Shown piece by piece: positions 49,101 through 58,271 of a DNA stretch of 64,000 nt; the stretch's first letter is position 1, and each line of letters opens with the position of its first letter. A program made the position numbers and the translations under genes. Source of the stretch: Scenedesmus sp. PABB004 (lineage: Eukaryota); the NCBI GenBank assembly GCA_014905635.1, contig JABVCE010000003.1, positions 992,001-1,056,000 on the forward strand, written 5' to 3'. The notes under the pieces are model-generated. The model ran no database searches. It saw only the letters and a program-made list of their open reading frames with translations, and had not been told where the DNA came from.

Positions 49101-51039
49101 GTGCGGCCGCCTCGCTGCCGCACGCCGCGCGCTGCAGCGCGGACTGCACGCGCAGCTGCAGCGCGGCGAGCGCGCCAGGCTCATCTGCGTCCGGCCCCGC
49201 GCCGCGCGGCAGCTGCATGCCGACGACGCACAGCGCCACGCGCAGCGCTGCCGCCGCCAGCGGCTGCAGGCCCGCGTTGCCCGCGGCGGCCGGCTCCGCG
49301 CCCACCCCGGCCAGGCAGTCCAGCAGCGCGTCGCCGAGCGCCGCCGCCAGGCAAGCCCACGCCGGCCCGAGCGGCGCGGGCGCCGCGGCGGCCTCGCCGC
49401 CCGCGGCGGCGCCGTCGTCTGCGGTCGCCTCGCTGGCAAAGATTTGCTGCATATAGTTTGGCTCGCCCTCGTCGTCATCGTCGTCGTCGGGCGCGTGCAC
49501 CAGCGGCGCGGGCTCGCCTGGCGCAGCGCCGGGCGCCGCCGGGGCCGCGCGGCTGCCCCCGCCGCTCGCCGCCGCCCGCCGCAGGGCCAGCAGCAGCAGC
49601 GCCAGCAGCGCGGCCGGCTGCTGCTGCGCGCCGGGCTCGTCGCCAGACGCGAGCGCCTGGTCCAGCACGCGCCAGGACGCCCCGCCGGGCTTGCCGCCGC
49701 GGTCGCTGTCGCCGCCGCCGCCGCTGTTGCTGCCACAGCCCTGCAGTGCCTCAGCAGCGGCGCCTGACCCACGCAAGAGGCGCGCCAGCAGCTGCACGCG
49801 CTCCACGCACCAGCCACCCACGCCGGCGTCGCGCTCCGCTGCGTCGGCGGCGCCCGCCTGCAGCACGGCCTGCCCGCTGAGCAGGCCCTGCGCCTGCCCG
49901 CCCGCGGGCAGCAGCGCGCGCGCCAGCCGCGCCACCGCGTCGCCGCGCCCCAGCGCCGCGAGCAGCAGGCCGCGCAGCTGCTGCGCCAGCGGCGGCCCGC
50001 CGACCAGGTGCAGCCGACCGCAGCCGAGCGCGAGCCGCCATGCGGGCTCCACGGCGCCCAGCGCCGGCGGCGCGGCCTCGGCCTGGTCGCTGCTTGGCGC
50101 AGCCGCAGGGCGCGCCGCGGCCGCCGCCGCCAGGCCCTGCAGCACATCTTGCAAGCTGCGCACGAGCTGCGGCGCGGGCGCGGCCGCCACGCCCTGCGCC
50201 GCTGCCTCCTCTGCGGCCGCCGCCGCCAGCTGCAGCAGCGCTGCCGACAGCGGCCACGCCTCGCTGGCGTCGTCCGTGGCGGCCGCCGCCCAGCGCGCCG
50301 CCGCGCCCGCGAGCTGCTGCAGCGCGCCCGCGAGCGCCCCAGGCCGCCCCTGCTCCAGCGCCGCCAGCAGCGTCGCGGCCTGCCGCGCCGGCGCCGGCAG
50401 CACGCTCGGGCGCGGCGCCGAGCTCATGGGCAGCTGGCCCAGCAGCTGCCGCAGCGCCGCCTGCGGGCCAGAGCTCGGCTGCGCCTGCTGCTGGCGCGGC
50501 TGCGTCTCCTGCTGCCCCGCTCCGCCGCCGCCCGCGGGCAGCGCTGACGCCAGCACGCCGCGCAGCGCCCCTGCTGCTCGCACCCTGCGAGCGGCGGCGT
50601 CGGGCGCGGGCGTCGGGGCGGGGGCGCGGGCGCGGCGGGTGCGCGGGTGCGCGGGCGCGCAGGCGCGCGCTGCGGGCAGCGGCGCGGCAGCGGCGGCGCA
50701 CCGCGCGGAGGGCGCTGGGGCCGGCTCATCGCCCGGGTGCGCGCAGAGTGAGCTCAGGGCGTCGGTGAGCGCGTCCAGCGCGCCTGCGGCGCCTGCGGCA
50801 GGGCAGGCGGCGACGCCATCAAGCGGCGCGGCGCGGCGTCGCGCCGCCGGCGCGCCGGCCAGGCCTGCGCCGCGCCGAGACGGCGCAGCGCGCGTCTGGT
50901 GCTGCCGTGGGCCCGCACCTGGCCGCGGCGGAGGCAGGTCGAGATCGGCGCACGCCTGCGCGAGGCCGCCCACGCCTCGAGCCTCCTCGCCGCCGTGTTC
51001 CTCGCCGCCGTTGGTGTCGACGCCGTCCATCGAGCCCAT
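30014..51039 (-). CDS. BIG: Giant E3 ubiquitin ligase BIG/UBR4 (auxin transport protein BIG-like)
   Basis: UBR box QCSF..FIEQHW|YQCYTCGLTESKGCCSACAAVCHAGHDLVYSARSRFFCDCG (~44030-44335); Cys-rich LHCPRCSHVVTDRHGMCSYCR|ENAYQCRQCRHINYE..CSECGHSR; QEEFIPG, MRDVKNYVC, DDDFGMELLVGGSIVSLALPV, GLDGEATE; C-terminal CMVCREGY..SVSHFNLIHVACH..EWAGATLRN..CNALLP; TAG 30014-30016. The N-terminal third and the start codon are less certain. Confidence 0.9.
31119..31180. repeat. (GCC)n microsatellite encoding poly-Gly in BIG
   Basis: Uninterrupted gcc run. Confidence 0.9.
41770..41910. repeat. Mixed GCT/GCC triplet repeat encoding a Ser/Gly-rich insert in BIG
   Basis: ctgctgccgccg-type triplet array. Confidence 0.85.
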
Positions 51040-51371
51040 GCCCGCGCGGCGTCCCTCGCTGCGCCCGTCGCTAGCCGGCGCCCCGCGCCCGCTGCTGCGC
51101 CCCCGGCATCGGCACCGCCTGCTGCGTCGGCCCTCCGCGAAGCGTGTGAAGTCACGATCCCGTGTCCGGAAGGGCAATGGCGCCGCTGTCGGCGCGGCGG
51201 CGGCAAGGCGGCGCGGGCCTCGAGGTCTCAAGCAGCGCGCGCGCCGCCGTGCGGTCCCTCTCCCCGCGCAGGCGTCACGCCGCCGCCGAGGCGCCTCCCA
51301 CACCACCGGCAGCACGGGAGGACGCCACCCAGGCAGCGCCGCCCCCGCCGCGCGCCGCCGCCGCCGCAGCG

Positions 51372-54300
51372 ATGGAGCTGCGCGACCTTGCCCGCGCCGC
51401 CTTTGCGGCGGGGCGCTTCGAAGGTACCTCCGGTCACTCGCGCTTGCTGTCGAGGCGGCAACCGGCTCGCGGGGCCGCGAGAGGCAGCTTTTCAGCTGTC
51501 GGCAGCGCGCGCGCGCGCGAGCGGCTCTGCGCCTCCGCGGCTCCAGCCCGCGCCCGCGCCCCGCAGACGCGCTGGCGCTCTACCTGCAGGCCCTGGCGCT
51601 CGTGCCCGCCGACGCCCCGCCCGCCCCCGGCGGCCAGCCAGCCGAGCGGGCGGCGCTCGCCGCCAACGCGTCCGCAGCGCTCCTCCGCCTGAACCGGGCG
51701 GACGAGGCGCTCGCGTTCGCTGACGCGGCTGCCGAAGCTTCGCCGGGGTGGCCCAAGGCACAGTATCGCCGCGCCGCCGCGCTGGCGGAGCTCGACCGCC
51801 ACGGCGAGGCCGCGGCGGCGCTGGCGCGCGTGGCGGCGGGCCTCGAGGCGGCGGGCGAGGCGGGCGAGGCCGCCGCCGTGCGCCGCAAGCTGTGCGCGGC
51901 CACCGCGGCGGCGGCTGCGGCGGAGCAGCACCTGCAGGTGCAGTCGGAACTGGCGGCCGCGCACGCGGGCTGGGCGGCGGCACACGCGCGCGAGGTGCGG
52001 CCTGCTGCGAGCGGCGAGCGCCGCACGGGGCAGCTGCTCCGCCGCGCTGGCCAGCGCAAGGTGCAGGCTCGACGCACACTCACCCCTCCCGCCGCCCCTT
52101 GCCAGGCCGCCGGGCGGCAGGCGCTGCTGGGCCAGCTGCGCCAGGGCATGGCGGGGCACGCGTGGGAGCCGGCCGACTGGGAGTGGCGGCCGACGTGGGC
52201 GCCGAGCATGCGCGACGACGCCGACGACGACGGCGACCGCGGCGGCACCGCCCCGGCCGGCCTGCTCGGCGGCCTCGCCGGCGCGTTTGACGGGTCGGAG
52301 CAGCGCGCGCAGACGCTGGGCCTGGTCGCCGGCCTGTCCACGCAGCTCGCGGAGCTCGACGCGCCGCGCCGCGGGCTCGCGCTGCTGCGCGACGCGCCGC
52401 TCCTGTCCTGGTACGCTCGCGGCCTCGCGGCGGCACTGCAGGGCGCCGGCCCCGGCGCGCACGTCCTGGTCCTCGGCAACGGCGGCGGCGCGGTTCTGGG
52501 CCTGCTCGCGGCCGCGGCGGGCGCGGCGCGCGTGACCGTGGTCGAGCGCGCGCGCTGGGGCTTCCGCGCCGCGCAGCAGCTGCTGGCGGCCAACGCCGGC
52601 CTCGCGGCGGGCCGCGTGGAGGCGGCGCCGGTGCCGCTCGCGTGCGTCCGCGTCGCCGCGCGGCGGCCCGAGGGCGCGGCGGGTCCTCCTCCGGAGCAAG
52701 GGGAGCTGGACCACGTGATCCCCCAGGCGGCGGACGTGGTCGTGACTGACCTGATTGACTACAGGTGCGGCGCCTGCAGGCAGCTGCCGCGCGGCCGGCG
52801 GCGGTGGCAGTGCGCGGGCGCTCGCAGCAGCTGGGACCGCCCCGGCGCGCGCGCCTGCCCCGACGCGGCGGCACGCCCCGCGCCCGCGCCGCGCCGCCGC
52901 GCAGCGTGGTCGGACAGGGCCTCCTGCCGAGCCTGGCGACAGCGCGCGCGTCCGGGCTGCTCGCGCCGGGCGCGGTGGCGCTGCCTGCGCGCGTGGCCGT
53001 GCGGGGGATGCTGGTGGACACGGCGGCACCGCCGCGCGCTGCTGGCTTTGACCTGTCCGCAATGGCTCGCTACCACTGGCACCCCACCCTGGAGCGCGTC
53101 GACGCCGCCAGGCGCGCGCGGTGCCGGCGGGCTGCACCTGCCGCCTGAGAACGGGACCACGGCGGCCGCCGCTGGCGCGCGCGGCGAGGGCCACGCCGAC
53201 GCCGCCGCCACGCTGCCGCCGCCGCCGCAGGCTGCGCCAGTTTGGGCGCGCCTCGCCGGCCGCGGAGCTCCTGGCCCTGGACCTGCAGGCGCCCGGCGGC
53301 GCGGGCGAGGCGCGCGGCACTGTGACCTTGCCGCTGGCGGGGCCGTGCAATGCGCTCGCGCTCTGGTGCGAGCTGGCTGCGCCCGGCGGCGAGCGCGTCT
53401 CGGGCGGCCCCGCCGACGACGCCGACGCGCGCGACTGCTGCGGCGTCGCGCACAGCCTGGGTCAGGCCCTCCGCTACCTGGACACGCCGCTGCTGCCCCA
53501 GGGGGCGGCGGCCGCCGCCGCCGCCACGGCCGGCGACGCCGCCGCGGCCGAGCCGCAGACCGCGGCCGTCGCGGCGCGCGTGCAGCGCGGCCTGCGGCTG
53601 TCGCTGCGCGTTGAGGCGGGCCCCGGGCCGCTCGCGCCCGCGGCGACATGGGCGCCGCACGGCGCGCCGCGCCAGGCGATGCTGCCGCGCTGGCACTTTG
53701 ACATGATCGCCGACGACGCGCGCAACGCCGCGTACGACGGAGCGATCAGGTGCGTGACTGCGCGTGTGTGCAGCGCGCGCCGCGCGGCCTGCCGCCGAGC
53801 GGGTGGCGGCTCGAGGTCAGGCCCGGCGCGCGCCGCGACCCCGCGCCGCGCCCTGCCCCTGCCCCGCGCGGCGGCGCAGGCGCGAGGTCGCGCGCCTCAC
53901 GGCGGCGCGCGGCGGCGGCGGCGGCGGCGTGCACGTGCTGGACGTCGGCACCGGCTCGGGGCTGCTCGCGCTGATGGCGGTCAGGTGCGGCCCGCTGGCG
54001 CGCTCGGCGGCGGGGGGCGGGCGGACCCCGGCCTCGCGCACGTGCACGGCGGGGGAGCCTCGCTGTTGCACACCCGCGCGCCGCGCCGGCCAGTCCCTCT
54101 GCGCGGCCGCCGCCGCCGCCTCGGCCGCGGGGAGGCACCGCGCGCGCGCCCCGCCGCGCGCCCGCGCTCGCGCTGCGGTCGTGCGCTGCCCCCTCCGCCT
54201 CGGCCCGGCCCGGCTCGGCTCGGCGTCACGTCTGACTCCTGTCTGCGGGCGCCGGCTCGGGGGCTCAGCTGCTGGTGAAGAGCGCGTCCCAGCCGAGCAG

Positions 54301-57183
54301 GTACATGAAGCTCGAGTCGAGCAGCTGGCGCAGCAGGTAGAACTCGCCCGGCGTGAGGCTGACCGCGGCGGACGCGTTGGTCCCCGCGCCCTTGTCCGCC
54401 ACGCTCGCGTTGATGAAGTAGGCCTTGCCGTCAGGCGCGCGGCTCCACTTGAGCGTCTTGACCAGCTGCCCCTCGCGCCCGGGCTGGCCCTTGTCTGCGT
54501 GTGATTTGTGTGGGTGTCGGTGTGAGTGGGGGGGGGGCTGAGCGAGCGCGGCCGCGGCCGCGACCGCACGCACACACGCGCACACACGCCCACACCATCC
54601 ACCCCGCCCACACCCACCCACCACCCGCACACACCCACACCCACCCACCCACCCACCCACACCCACGCACACCCACACCCACACACATCAACACACGCAC
54701 GCACACAACACCCACATGTGTCGTGGTAGAACGTGTGGTCGGCCTCCGGCGCGGACAGCAGGTCGGCGACCTCCTGCGCGCGCAGCGCGATCGACACCTT
54801 GGCCTCCCAGTTGTACCGCCGCTCGCCCGCGGCGGACGCGATTTCAAACATCACAGTGCCCTCGCTGAGCGCGCGCGGGGCAGGGGTGGGCGGGCGGGGC
54901 AGGGGCGGGCGGGGCGCGGTCGCACGCGGGCGCAGACGCGCGGCGCGGGGCGCGCCGCGGGGCGCCCCGCCCGCCCGCCTGCCCCGCCGCGCCGCACCGC
55001 TCGATTTTGAACGCGCCGCCGGAGGTGTTGCCCCAGGTCGGCTTGATGGGGCGCACGTTGAGCGCGCCCTTGGTCTTGTAGACCGAGAACGCGGTGAACA
55101 CCGGCGGCGGGCCCGCCTGCGCGGCGCCGTCGCCTGCGGCGGCAGCGGCAGCGGTGCGGGCGGCGGGCGGTCGGGGCAGGGGCCGCTCACGCAGCGGCGG
55201 CGGCGGCGGCGGCAGGGGTCCCAAGCGGCGGCGGAGGGCGCCGCGCGCGGCCGCGCACCCGCGAAGCCCTCTGTGGTCTGCTCCATCACGCGGGGGGTCG
55301 TCGTGAAGCCGCGCCCGCCGCCGCGCGACGCCAGGGGCGCCCGCAGCGCGCCGGCCGCCGCCTGGCCGGCCGGCAGGCGCGCCAGCGACTGCAGCGCCCG
55401 GCTGCGGAGGAGCAGGGCGGCCATGGTGCCCCGCACGTGTGCACGCAGCGCCCGGCTGGCCAGCCACGGTCGGGCGGCGCCTCCCCCTTTCACGCGGGCC
55501 GGCCTGCGCGGCGGAGGCGGCGTCAGGCGCCTGAATGTGCCCCGACGCCCTGCCGCCGCCGCCGCCGCCGCCGCCGCCTGCCCGCCGGCGCCGCCGCGCA
55601 GGGCGGGCGCGGCGCGCACGACGGCGGTCGAGCAGGTGCGGCACCTCGCGGCGACCGCCGGCGCGGTGCTGGCGGCCAACGGCGCGGCCAGCGCGGTGCG
55701 CCTGGTGCACAAGGACGCCCGGCAGCTGACCGTGGGCCCGGACGGCGAGCTGGAGCGGCCCGCAGATGTGCTGGTCTTCGAGGTGCGCCCGGGGCGCGGG
55801 GATCGCGCTGTGCGCCGCGCCGCTGCGGCCGTGCTGCCGCTGCGCCACGATCTGCCGCTGGCACGCGCGTCCGCGGTCGCTGCACGCCCCAGCGACGGTG
55901 GCGGGTGCGGCTCGCTCGAACGCGCTCGCGAGCGCGCAGCCGCCCACCTGCGCGTCGCGCGGTCCACGCTCCGAGCGAGGCTGAGCGCACGCGGTCCCGG
56001 CAGCTGTCGGCAGCAGCTGGCGACAGCGGCGGCAGCAGCGAGACAGCGGCGGCGCTCGTGCGCTTGCGGCGGGCGGCGGGCGGCGGCGGGCGGTGCACTG
56101 GGCAAGACTGGGCAGAGCCTGCACCTGGCAGCGAGCCTGAGCGTCGGCCGCCACCGCTGACGGCGGTTCAGAAAATCCCCGTCGCACGCCCGCGCCCCGA
56201 CGCCCGCGCCCCGACGCCCGCGCCCCGACGCCCCCCACCCTGACGCCGCCGCCCTCCGCCACGCACGCCGCCGCGGGGCAGGTCTTCGACTGCGGCCTCA
56301 TCGGCGAGGGCGCGCTGCACCTCGTCGCCGCCGCGCGCGGCGCGGGGCTGCTCGCGCCCGGGGCGCGCGTGCTGCCGGCCGGCGCGCGCGTGCTCTGCCA
56401 GCCCATCCAGCTGCTCGCCGGGTGTGCGGGCAGCGCCTGCGGCATCGACGGCGCGCCGCTCGCGCCGTACGCGTGGGCGGGGCCGGACTACGTCGAGCTG
56501 GACCTGCGCCCCGGCGCGGCCGCGGCGTCGGCCGACGCCGGCGAGGGCGCGCCCGCGGGGGCTCGCCTGAGCTCGGCGGCGCGCCCGCGTGGCGCGCGCT
56601 CGCGCCGCCCGCGCTGGCGGCGGCGTTTGACTTCAACGCGCCCGACCCGGGCGCCACGTACGCGCCCGCCGTGCGGCGCGTCGAGTTTGCGGTCGCCCGC
56701 CGCGGCGTGGCCAACGCCGTCGCGTTCTGGTTTGATCTTACGCTGGATGAGCACGCGAGCCTGACCAGCAGCCCCTACGCCGCGCCCGGCGCGGCGCGTG
56801 CGACCTGGCAGCAGGCGGTGCAGCTGGTGCCGGAGGTCGCGGTGTTGCCGGGGCAGGTGCTGCGCCTCGACGCGTCCCACGACAGCTACGCGCTCGCCTT
56901 TGCCCTCGCTCCCGCCGACGCCGACGGCGCGTGCGCGCCCGCCGACGCCGACGCCGACGGCGCGCCGCGCCCGACCGGGGCGCCGCTCTTCGACCCGGCG
57001 TGGCGCGCCGCGTTTGAGCGCCTGGGCGAGGCGCGCGGCGCGCTGGCGAGGGCGGTCACGCAGGACCCGACCGAGTACCGGCGCGTCGCGGCGGCCGCGG
57101 CGGAGCTCGCGATGCGCCCCTGGGGCGCGCCGGCGGCGGACCCGCACTTTGCGTCGGCGCTGCTGGTGCAGCTCATGTCGTGA
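51372..57183 (+). CDS. TPR-containing protein arginine methyltransferase with two PRMT domains (PRMT7/PRMT9-like)
   Basis: TPR: MELRDLARAAFAAGRFE|DALALYLQAL..ANASAALLRL..PGWPKAQYRRAAAL. Domain 1 degenerate (VLVLGNGGG, TDLIDYSVVGQG). Domain 2: WHFDMIADDARNAAYDGAIR, VLDVGTGSGLLALMAVR|AGA..AVE, DVLVFE|VFDCGLIGEG, NAVAFWFDL, TWQQA. Alternative in-frame ATG at 51177. Frame break at the G run ~56557-56561. Confidence 0.85.
54265..55424 (-). CDS. WHY: Whirly ssDNA-binding protein, probably mitochondrial (WHY2-like), nested antisense in a PRMT intron; coding exons 55424-55259, 55133-54998, 54864-54716, 54494-54265
   Basis: Presequence-like MAALLLRSRALQSLARL..RGFTT; FSVYKTKGALNVRP (KGKAAL-like motif); EGTVMFEIA..RRYNWEAKVSIAL; FYHDTYKGQPGREGQLVKTLKW; VSLTPGEF..FMYLLGWD; all three introns GT-AG with the frame preserved. 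Confidence 0.9.
54566..54715. repeat. Degenerate CA/CCCA microsatellite in Whirly intron 3
   Basis: cacacccacac-type low-complexity tract. Confidence 0.8.
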
Positions 57184-57419
57184 GCGCGCACGCATGCGTG
57201 GCGCGCGAGGTTACCGCGGCCAGGGGGGCAATGCGCCCCGCCGCCGACGCCCGCGATCGACGGCGCGCTCGGCGCAGCTGCAACTGCAAAAACGGGCAAC
57301 CGCAAGAAGCGATCACTGCTGGTGTACACACGCGACGCGGCCGCACAGGGCGGCCTCCCCCAAACAGACTGCTGCTGTACAGGGCGCAGGCGCCGCCCGC
57401 CGCCCGCGCCGCCGGGCGG

Positions 57420-58271
57420 TCAGCCCTCGAGCGCTTCCAGCTGCCGCCGCTGCGCCTGCAGCCGCGCCGCGCGCGCGCGCACGCCCGCCTGCAGCGTCCG
57501 CGCCTCGAGCTGCGACACGCGCAGCTGCTGCTGCACTGCCTCCAGCTCCGCCTCGACCTGCGGCGCGGGCGGCGGCGAGTCAGCGCGTCGCCGCGCGCGC
57601 CCGGGCGCCGCCCCGCCGCCGCGCGCCGCGGCGGCGGCCGCCCCGCCCCCGCGACTCACCGCGATCGGCGCCGCCTGGACGACCTGGTTGTGGTAGAGGC
57701 GCAACGCGCTCAGCTGCCAGGTCGTGGCCGACGCGGCGCGCGCCGACGCCGCGCGCTGGAGCTGGCCCAGGCGCCGCTGCAGGCGCTGCTCCGTCGCCTG
57801 CTCCGCCGCGAGCCGGCTGCGCAGCGCCCGCAGCTGCCTGTCCAGGTGCGCGGCGTCGCTCTGCAGGCGGTAGCGCGCGAGCCGCCGCTGCAGGCGGCGC
57901 TCCTTGAGCTCCGCCTCGCACCTGCGCCATCGCGCCGTCGCGCCAGGCGTCGGCGTCTGGGGGTGGCGGCCCCGGGCGGCCCCCACAGCCACTGCAGCCT
58001 GCCGCGCGCGGGCGGCGCACCTGGCCCGGTACAGGGACCGCCAGTCCGGCGGCGGCGCCTGCTCGTGCTGCTGCTGCCGCTGCTGCTGCTGCTGCGCCGC
58101 TGCGCCCCAGGCCTGCTCGTAGAGCCTCCGCCACGCGCTGCCTGCGTTGACCACGACGCGGTGAAGGCGCCTGCAGCTTCTTGAGAGGCGCAGCATGTCC
58201 GGGGCGTCCAGGCAGCGGCAAATCGCCTCGAAGCACGCCCCGTCCAGGGCGAGGAGGCCGGCCTGGGCCAT
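57420..58271 (-). CDS. F-box protein with coiled-coil C-terminus, SKIP24-like, 3 exons
   Basis: LLALDGACFEAICRCLDAPDMLRLSRSCRRL..WRRLY (F-box); DWRSLY; RAASATTWQ..HNQVVQAAPIA|VEAELEAVQQQL resembles the plant SKIP24 C-terminus. Confidence 0.75.
   Translation of the reverse strand: MAQAGLLALDGACFEAICRCLDAPDMLRLSRSCRRLHRVVVNAGSAWRRLYEQAWGAAAQQQQQRQQQHEQAPPPDWRSLYRARCAARARQAAVAVGAARGRHPQTPTPGATARWRRCEAELKERRLQRRLARYRLQSDAAHLDRQLRALRSRLAAEQATEQRLQRRLGQLQRAASARAASATTWQLSALRLYHNQVVQAAPIAVSRGGGAAAAAARGGGAAPGRARRRADSPPPAPQVEAELEAVQQQLRVSQLEARTLQAGVRARAARLQAQRRQLEALEG

Follow-up and report, generated by a model that had tools for sequence, protein, structure and literature searches.

The locus described here raises the question of whether two genes on opposite strands can each have exons inside the introns of the other. 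It lies in a 64-kb stretch (64,000 nucleotides) of contig JABVCE010000003.1 of the green alga Scenedesmus sp. PABB004, referred to below as the window, which is nuclear DNA with a GC content of about 80% throughout. A gene for a protein arginine methyltransferase (PRMT) is found on the plus strand and a gene for a Whirly protein on the minus strand. A preliminary description of this DNA proposed that the two are zipped together, with a PRMT exon sitting inside a predicted intron of the Whirly 5' untranslated region (5'-UTR). The Whirly gene is almost certainly nested antisense inside a single PRMT intron, judging from the coding evidence on both strands; this had not been stated in that description. 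For the full arrangement, in which a nested Whirly gene with a spliced leader would make the pair truly interleaved, the evidence from sequence comparison and splice signals suggests an even chance.

The PRMT gene is about 5.8 kb long, has its stop at 57183 and encodes TPR repeats and two PRMT modules. Its start is predicted to be the ATG at 51372, with a first exon at 51372-51423 and a first intron at 51424-51566. By three-frame reading, the exons near Whirly are one that ends at 53749 and the three listed in Table 1, the last of which runs from 56282 onward. The host intron has a strong donor (CAG/GTGCGG, 11.4 bits), and the reading frame is preserved across its junction, where AG and G combine into an arginine codon. 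Two algal proteins of 1,116 and 1,049 aa (P0004 and P0005) have tblastn matches that are collinear with the window from about 51370 to 57177. Across all three junctions the spliced PRMT translation gives an unbroken alignment to P0004 (E 8e-53, with 46% identity over 259 aa) and likewise to P0005. The exon at 55602-55782 and the 499 nt intron that follows it, both of which had been proposed beforehand, are therefore real. Taken alone, the exon (55603-55782) matches residues 85-143 of mouse PRMT7 (4c4a) with E 1.1e-4, and the next exon gives a weak match to residues 149-190 of Caenorhabditis elegans PRMT7 (E 0.17). The class I SAM-binding core is thereby collinear with that of a solved PRMT.

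In P0004 and P0005, TPR repeats at the N-terminus are followed by two methyltransferase modules, the first degenerate and the second a canonical PRMT module that carries PRMT_C. Both PRMT modules of the window gene are seen in secondary alignments to these proteins. The translation contains VLDVGTGSG and FEVFDCGLIGEG, which we take to be PRMT motifs. For the profile of the PRMT C-terminal beta-barrel (PF22528), which has a cut-off of 27 bits, the window piece reaches 16.4 bits and P0004, which is 42% identical to it there, 45.9 bits. The deposited protein of the PRMT gene itself was not among the matches in a search limited to proteins of 360-2000 aa.

The first methyltransferase module is degenerate in the window PRMT and in its two algal homologues (LVLGNGGG, VVTDLIDY), and the second has the canonical motifs. 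This order of modules is reversed relative to animal PRMT7 and PRMT9. The PRMT reading frame shifts at about 56540-56570 without a convincing intron. This is either a 1 nt indel or assembly error in a run of G, or a weak 80 nt intron at 56492-56571, which would remove the residues VELDL that are apparently homologous to P0004 and P0005. The homologue search for the last PRMT stretch used 56566-57180 as the query.

The Whirly gene has four coding exons for a protein of 226 aa, read on the minus strand from an ATG at 55424 to a stop at 54265. A search with exon 4 found a deposited protein that is 100% identical, WHY1 of Scenedesmus sp. PABB004 (P0001, 467 aa). Residues 314-448 of P0001, which correspond to the four exons in the window, match positions 1-135 of the 136 in the Pfam Whirly profile PF08536 (E 5.6e-33). 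The score for P0001 is 114 bits against a cut-off of 23, and single exons also pass, with 28.1 and 24.3 bits. The exon 4 product has 64-65% identity to two algal transcript-derived proteins. Plant Whirly proteins carry an N-terminal presequence for targeting to organelles, and the N-terminus of the window protein, MAALLLRSRALQSLARLPAG..., looks like a presequence when judged by eye. It follows a start codon at 55424-55422 in the context CACCATGG.

All of the Whirly coding sequence (54265-55424) falls within the 1,617 nt PRMT intron at 53985-55601 and takes up 1,160 nt of it. This leaves 177 nt of intron upstream of the coding region and 280 nt downstream. Since Whirly fills most of the host intron, there is little room in it for a promoter of its own. 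Between the Whirly stop and the PRMT exon downstream of it there is no TGTAA or TGTAC; the sole near match is TGTGCAAC on the minus strand at window position 54070, about 195 nt past the stop. The 3' end of Whirly may be close to, or inside, the PRMT exon at 53880-53984. The part of Whirly intron 3 at 54567-54716 is mostly a microsatellite of the CACC/CACACC type, GT/G-rich on the strand of the gene itself. In a scan of metagenomes with a Whirly alignment, 168 pattern stretches were matched and none was confirmed as a relative locus.

Table 1. Coordinates of the PRMT and Whirly genes, the candidate leader intron and neighbouring features (window positions; nt, nucleotides; SAM, S-adenosylmethionine).
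Feature	Position	Strand	Remarks
PRMT exon	53880..53984	+	SAM-binding motif VHVLDVGTGSGLL; ends in phase 2; continuous alignment to P0004 and P0005
PRMT host intron, 1,617 nt	53985..55601	+	whole Whirly coding region antisense within it
Whirly exon 4	54265..54494	-	stop codon 54267-54265; Pfam Whirly E 2e-6
Whirly intron 3, 221 nt	54495..54715	-	GTGG/CACC-type microsatellite inside
Whirly exon 3	54716..54864	-	alignable to P0002
Whirly intron 2, 133 nt	54865..54997	-	
Whirly exon 2	54998..55133	-	Pfam Whirly profile positions 1-32, E 3e-5
Whirly intron 1, 125 nt	55134..55258	-	ends GTGCGC...CGCAG; spliced product gives full Whirly domain
Whirly coding exon 1	55259..55424	-	ATG context CACCATGG, then N-terminus MAALLLRSRALQ; P0001 residues 242 onward
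Whirly leader before ATG, 79 nt	55425..55503	-	untranslated in the present model; coding in the deposited fusion
Candidate Whirly 5'-UTR intron, 444 nt	55504..55947	-	donor GT 55947-55946; branch CTGAC 55526-55522; acceptor AG 55505-55504
Perfect palindrome TCAGGCGCCTGA, 12 nt	55523..55534	.	branch-like, CTGAC (-) and CTGAA (+); one occurrence in the window
PRMT exon, 181 nt	55602..55782	+	aligned to P0004 residues 747-811
PRMT intron, 499 nt	55783..56281	+	tandem repeats and AT-richer patch; junction E/VFDCGLIGEG continuous with P0004
AT-richer patch GGTTCAGAAAATCCC	56164..56179 (plus-strand letters)	.	inside the 499 nt PRMT intron; local 60 nt GC 0.68-0.72
Last PRMT coding stretch	56282..57183	+	stop 57181-57183; frame break near 56540-56570
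Tail-to-tail 3' region of PRMT and F-box genes, 236 nt	57184..57419	.	GC 0.75, minimum 0.55; TGTACA palindromes at 57323 and 57376
F-box-like gene	57420..58271	-	own conserved C-terminus and stop (57420-57422); Pfam F-box-like E 2.2e-6

The second half of the question concerns the sequence upstream of the Whirly start. The donor CGCAG/GTGGGC at 55947, the CTGAC at 55526-55522 and the AG at 55505-55504, with no other AG between the last two, are all placed correctly on the minus strand in the preliminary description, and the 444 nt intron that they delimit does enclose the PRMT exon at 55602-55782. Whirly transcripts would start in the unusually long and less GC-rich PRMT intron at 55783-56281. 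The 5'-UTR intron at 55947..55504 would then be spliced out, skipping the antisense copy of the PRMT exon, and the mature leader would consist of a short non-coding exon joined to the 79 nt that precede the ATG. Each gene would then have an exon within an intron of the other.

Splice sites were scored with weight matrices trained on 43 introns of the window, of which 8 were curated by homology and 35 chosen by coding contrast, none of them RNA-verified. Candidate introns came from a crude Viterbi gene finder that over-predicts (208 plus 179 introns). A coding-contrast filter kept 40 of 384, and one of these was discarded because it lies inside a PRMT exon. With 10.9 bits, the donor at 55947 ranks at the 88th percentile of true donors under leave-one-out scoring. 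Counting both strands, only 15 of 4,444 GT sites score as high or higher, nine of which belong to training introns; another, at 50918, follows an apparent coding first exon. The branch sequence was scored with a model that requires an A (consensus [GC]C[CT][CG]AC), under which CCTGACG has 3.3 bits and is 19 nt from the acceptor, near the median of true introns. An unconstrained expectation-maximisation branch model was discarded, having drifted to the repeat motif GCCGCC. The composite score of acceptor and branch is 7.6, a value reached by 240 of 6,327 AG sites. From the donor to the ATG there are 21 AGs, among which the acceptor at 55504 ranks first (runner-up 3.0), so that the intron must span the PRMT exon if the donor is used. 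The branch and tract are identical in 14 of 15 bases to the homology-verified 3' end of the 499 nt PRMT intron.

A donor-acceptor pair that is equally good and has the same geometry is found upstream of 3.15% of window positions, or 1.03% when the training introns are left out. When 55425-56300 is shuffled with its dinucleotides preserved, such a pair occurs in 45 of 2,000 trials. The splice pair is moderately beyond chance, with a chance level of about 1-2%.

The palindrome listed in Table 1 was considered as a special signal and rejected as not significant, a match with at most one mismatch being present in 34 of 100 shuffles. The candidate acceptor on the minus strand and the PRMT acceptor on the plus strand are mirror images of each other, forming a 24 nt inverted repeat at 55499-55606 that is 88% complementary with its arms 60 nt apart. 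The 3' splice regions of both strands would stand back to back within about 100 nt, with the palindrome at 55523-55534 included.

The PRMT intron in which the Whirly transcript would start had been described as oversized and as carrying an AT-richer patch, and both features are present. At 499 nt it is the second largest of the 43 introns, for which the median is 122 nt. Its GC content is 0.80 with a dip to 0.68-0.72, while most introns have 0.85-0.93. The window has 50 such patches, defined by 8 or more A or T among 12 bases. Coding potential was found on neither strand of 55783-56281, so there is no sign of a hidden coding exon in it. The 177 nt directly upstream of the Whirly ATG have 84% GC and are rich in (GGC)n. 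They differ in this from the only clear promoter region in the vicinity, that of the F-box gene, where the sequence before the ATG has 72% GC. On the minus strand there is no ATG for 877 nt upstream of the Whirly start, and 24 of the 480 ATG-free gaps are as long.

The same data are fitted about as well by a simpler arrangement, in which Whirly is nested but not interleaved. Its transcription would begin in the 177 nt that separate the ATG from the PRMT exon or a little way into the exon itself, giving a short, unspliced leader, and the sites at 55947 and 55504 would be unused look-alikes in GC-rich sequence. This is a serious possibility, although its probability falls distinctly below one half. 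Several observations favour it and weigh against a spliced leader. The acceptor is mediocre, its matrix score of only 4.3 bits being at the 14th percentile of true acceptors and matched or exceeded by 629 of 6,332 AG sites, and 72% of true acceptors have a higher composite score. A donor of this strength on its own is present in 184 of the 2,000 shuffles, giving p of about 0.09. Strong decoy donors do occur in the window: two of the 15 best GT sites are clear decoys antisense to coding sequence (+57846 and +22586), and a further decoy donor at 55436 (8.0 bits) is only 12 nt before the Whirly ATG, where it is unusable. Of the 43 training introns, themselves mostly self-selected by coding contrast, 40 are shorter than the proposed intron. 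Most genes have no 5'-UTR intron.

The surroundings of the Whirly start can be weighed in the same direction. The PRMT gene (ATG 51372) diverges from a neighbour on the minus strand (ATG 51039, donor 50918), with start codons 333 nt apart, which shows that compact promoters and leaders occur here and that a promoter and leader can fit into about 170 nt, the space that Whirly has between its ATG and the PRMT exon. Gaps without ATG as long as that upstream of Whirly hold 23% of bases, which makes the gap weak evidence. Tandem repeats (a 14 nt repeat in 3.4 copies at 56186-56233) explain part of the size of the 499 nt intron. The presence of the same leader intron in the deposited model of the locus is no independent evidence if that annotation was made ab initio.

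What this simpler arrangement leaves to coincidence is the donor-acceptor pair, which is rare by chance. It also gives no reason for the length and lower GC of the neighbouring PRMT intron, and the proximal 177 nt are unlike the region upstream of the F-box gene in their high GC and (GGC)n. If a 5'-UTR intron is given a prior probability of 10-20%, and if the splice pair contributes a likelihood ratio of about 4-10 and the odd neighbouring intron a modest extra factor, the spliced leader comes out at about evens. A more specific proposal is that of a zipped antisense pair. The Whirly coding exons would lie in one PRMT intron, and the following PRMT intron would hold the promoter of Whirly together with its non-coding first exon; the PRMT exon between these introns would fall in the Whirly 5'-UTR intron, and transcription and splicing of the two genes would be physically coupled. 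The probability of this proposal may be put slightly under one half. Of the original claim of interleaving, the entanglement of the two genes on opposite strands stands, as do the good splice sites, which also appear in the deposited model. The Whirly coding exons do lie inside a PRMT intron. The other half, a PRMT exon inside a Whirly intron that is in use, is a prediction from splice-signal scores.

It is very unlikely that the splice sites, though genuine, serve a different transcript, such as a non-coding RNA antisense to PRMT or an occasional read-through from the F-box gene, rather than the main Whirly mRNA. The strength of the donor and the lack of coding potential on either strand of 55783-56281 would agree with such a transcript. 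Nothing points to a separate transcription unit, however, and scans against Rfam and for tRNAs over 53000-58000/58500 gave no Rfam match at E <=1 in 53000-58000 and no tRNA, nor therefore any sign of a hidden RNA gene in the 499 nt intron. The acceptor is also just 80 nt upstream of a start codon in good context, as is expected for the end of a 5'-UTR intron.

The deposited model of the locus, which the preliminary description does not mention, joins Whirly to the F-box gene. GenBank protein P0001 has both F-box-like and Whirly domains and uses the same four Whirly coding exons. In this model the F-box coding sequence runs as far as ...TLQAG, where a donor at 57482 joins it to a small exon at 56003-55948; a splice from 55948 to 55503 follows, and the reading continues across the leader to the ATG of Whirly. 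Joining 55948 to 55503 gives the P0001 peptide ...SVDRATRR/PARVKGGG... letter for letter. One protein of 467 aa would thus be made from a transcript running from 58271 to 54265, with coding introns at 57482..56004 and 55947..55504, spanning the 3' exons of PRMT. The frame is open all along, and the crude gene finder of the present analysis likewise chained F-box and Whirly, but at 80% GC open frames carry little weight.

The linker of the fusion (55948-56003 and 55425-55503) comprises 45 codons with a mean codon log-odds of -0.23 and a GC content at third codon positions of 0.82. In 155 trusted coding windows the median log-odds is 0.54, and the linker falls under their 5th percentile (0.13). 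The fusion junction is weak, with a donor of 4.6 bits, an acceptor of -1.9 bits and a composite of -3.5. The F-box open reading frame (ORF) has 36 relatives in a representative library, all of 58-281 aa except for one match of 711 aa in 7 stretches. Six of the seven aligned relatives end in ...LAALxG at the position of the window ORF's own stop, and this conserved tail is what the fusion model splices out. Beyond the F-box stop is the lower-GC tail-to-tail region with its TGTACA palindromes, and the context of the Whirly ATG, CACCATGG, with the presequence-like N-terminus after it, likewise suggests a start of translation at that point. It is therefore improbable in the extreme that the deposited fusion is right. 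Judged by its linker, its junction and the F-box ends, it is an annotation artefact that reuses the candidate intron. With the fusion rejected, Whirly is a separate gene and the intron, if real, is a 5'-UTR intron. Whirly is an independent gene, probably of the organelle type, apart from the F-box gene.

The F-box gene has two introns, at 57558-57659 (102 nt) and 57922-58020 (99 nt), whose lengths are multiples of three and which are free of stops; the corresponding stretches are absent from the aligned relatives. As both are in frame and stop-free, the gene reads as one ORF of 283 codons. On the two strands of the window together, TGTAA occurs only 3 times and TGTAC 26 times. TGTACA may be a variant poly(A) signal that reads alike on both strands.

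Opposite-strand genes nested in introns are described as common in animals in the portions of the Drosophila and mammalian literature drawn on here (PMC3814207, PMC5174743, PMC11694760). The present locus is like such pairs of host and nested gene in that the entire Whirly coding region is antisense within one PRMT intron. As in the animal pairs treated in those portions, the host intron is also far longer than its neighbours (1,617 nt, where the median is 122 nt). It is unlike those animal pairs in its setting and compactness. Introns here are about 120 nt, in contrast to those of animals, and the genome is small, green-algal and extremely GC-rich (PMC12571836, as far as drawn on here, and this window). 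The extent to which Whirly fills its host intron leaves almost no room for a promoter and 3' end. The phrase 'interleaved genes' was not found in the nested-gene literature searched.

Interleaved gene pairs are a recognised and rarer sub-type of gene overlap in the Drosophila annotation literature, in which each gene has exons in the introns of the other. If the intron at 55947..55504 is used, the present locus is like these, with a PRMT exon in a Whirly intron and Whirly coding exons in a PRMT intron. It differs from the established pairs in that one half of the arrangement, a Whirly intron around a PRMT exon, is here a prediction from splice-signal scores. Plant and algal nuclear genes can have 5'-UTR introns, which the candidate resembles in its non-coding first exon, its GT-AG ends, its end some tens of nt before the ATG and a leader without an upstream ATG. 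It is unlike them in that it would contain a coding exon of a gene on the opposite strand. The deposited WHY1 (P0001) shares the four Whirly exons and the intron at 55947..55504 with the present model; it differs in making the leader on either side of that intron coding and in joining it to the F-box gene, which is rejected here.

The deposited model of this locus, in which Whirly is fused to an F-box gene over the 3' exons of PRMT, is wrong. In the portion of PMC12571836 drawn on here, the genome of Scenedesmus sp. PABB004 is given as 39.8 Mb, with 78.5% GC and 7,092 genes. The genome paper is Calixto Mancipe et al. 2022 (J Appl Microbiol 132:2004), as cited in the relevant part of PMC13248705, which also has the PABB004 annotation serving as a reference for gene prediction in another alga. 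With only 7,092 models, and with stops rare at about 80% GC, chains of fused genes may be common in this annotation. A naive gene finder chained nearly the whole window into a few genes (4 + 1). Gene-fusion artefacts may be widespread among the PABB004 models.

The arrangement itself is of an already known kind, and the finding leaves the understanding of nested genes unchanged. What is gained is a corrected annotation and one defined junction, 55948^55503. If the spliced leader is true, the locus would be a compact case of mutual interleaving outside animals, useful for the study of transcriptional interference. In that case transcription and splicing of the gene for a DNA-binding organelle factor would be tied to those of the gene for an arginine methyltransferase, whether through transcriptional interference or through antisense pairing along the exon that they share.

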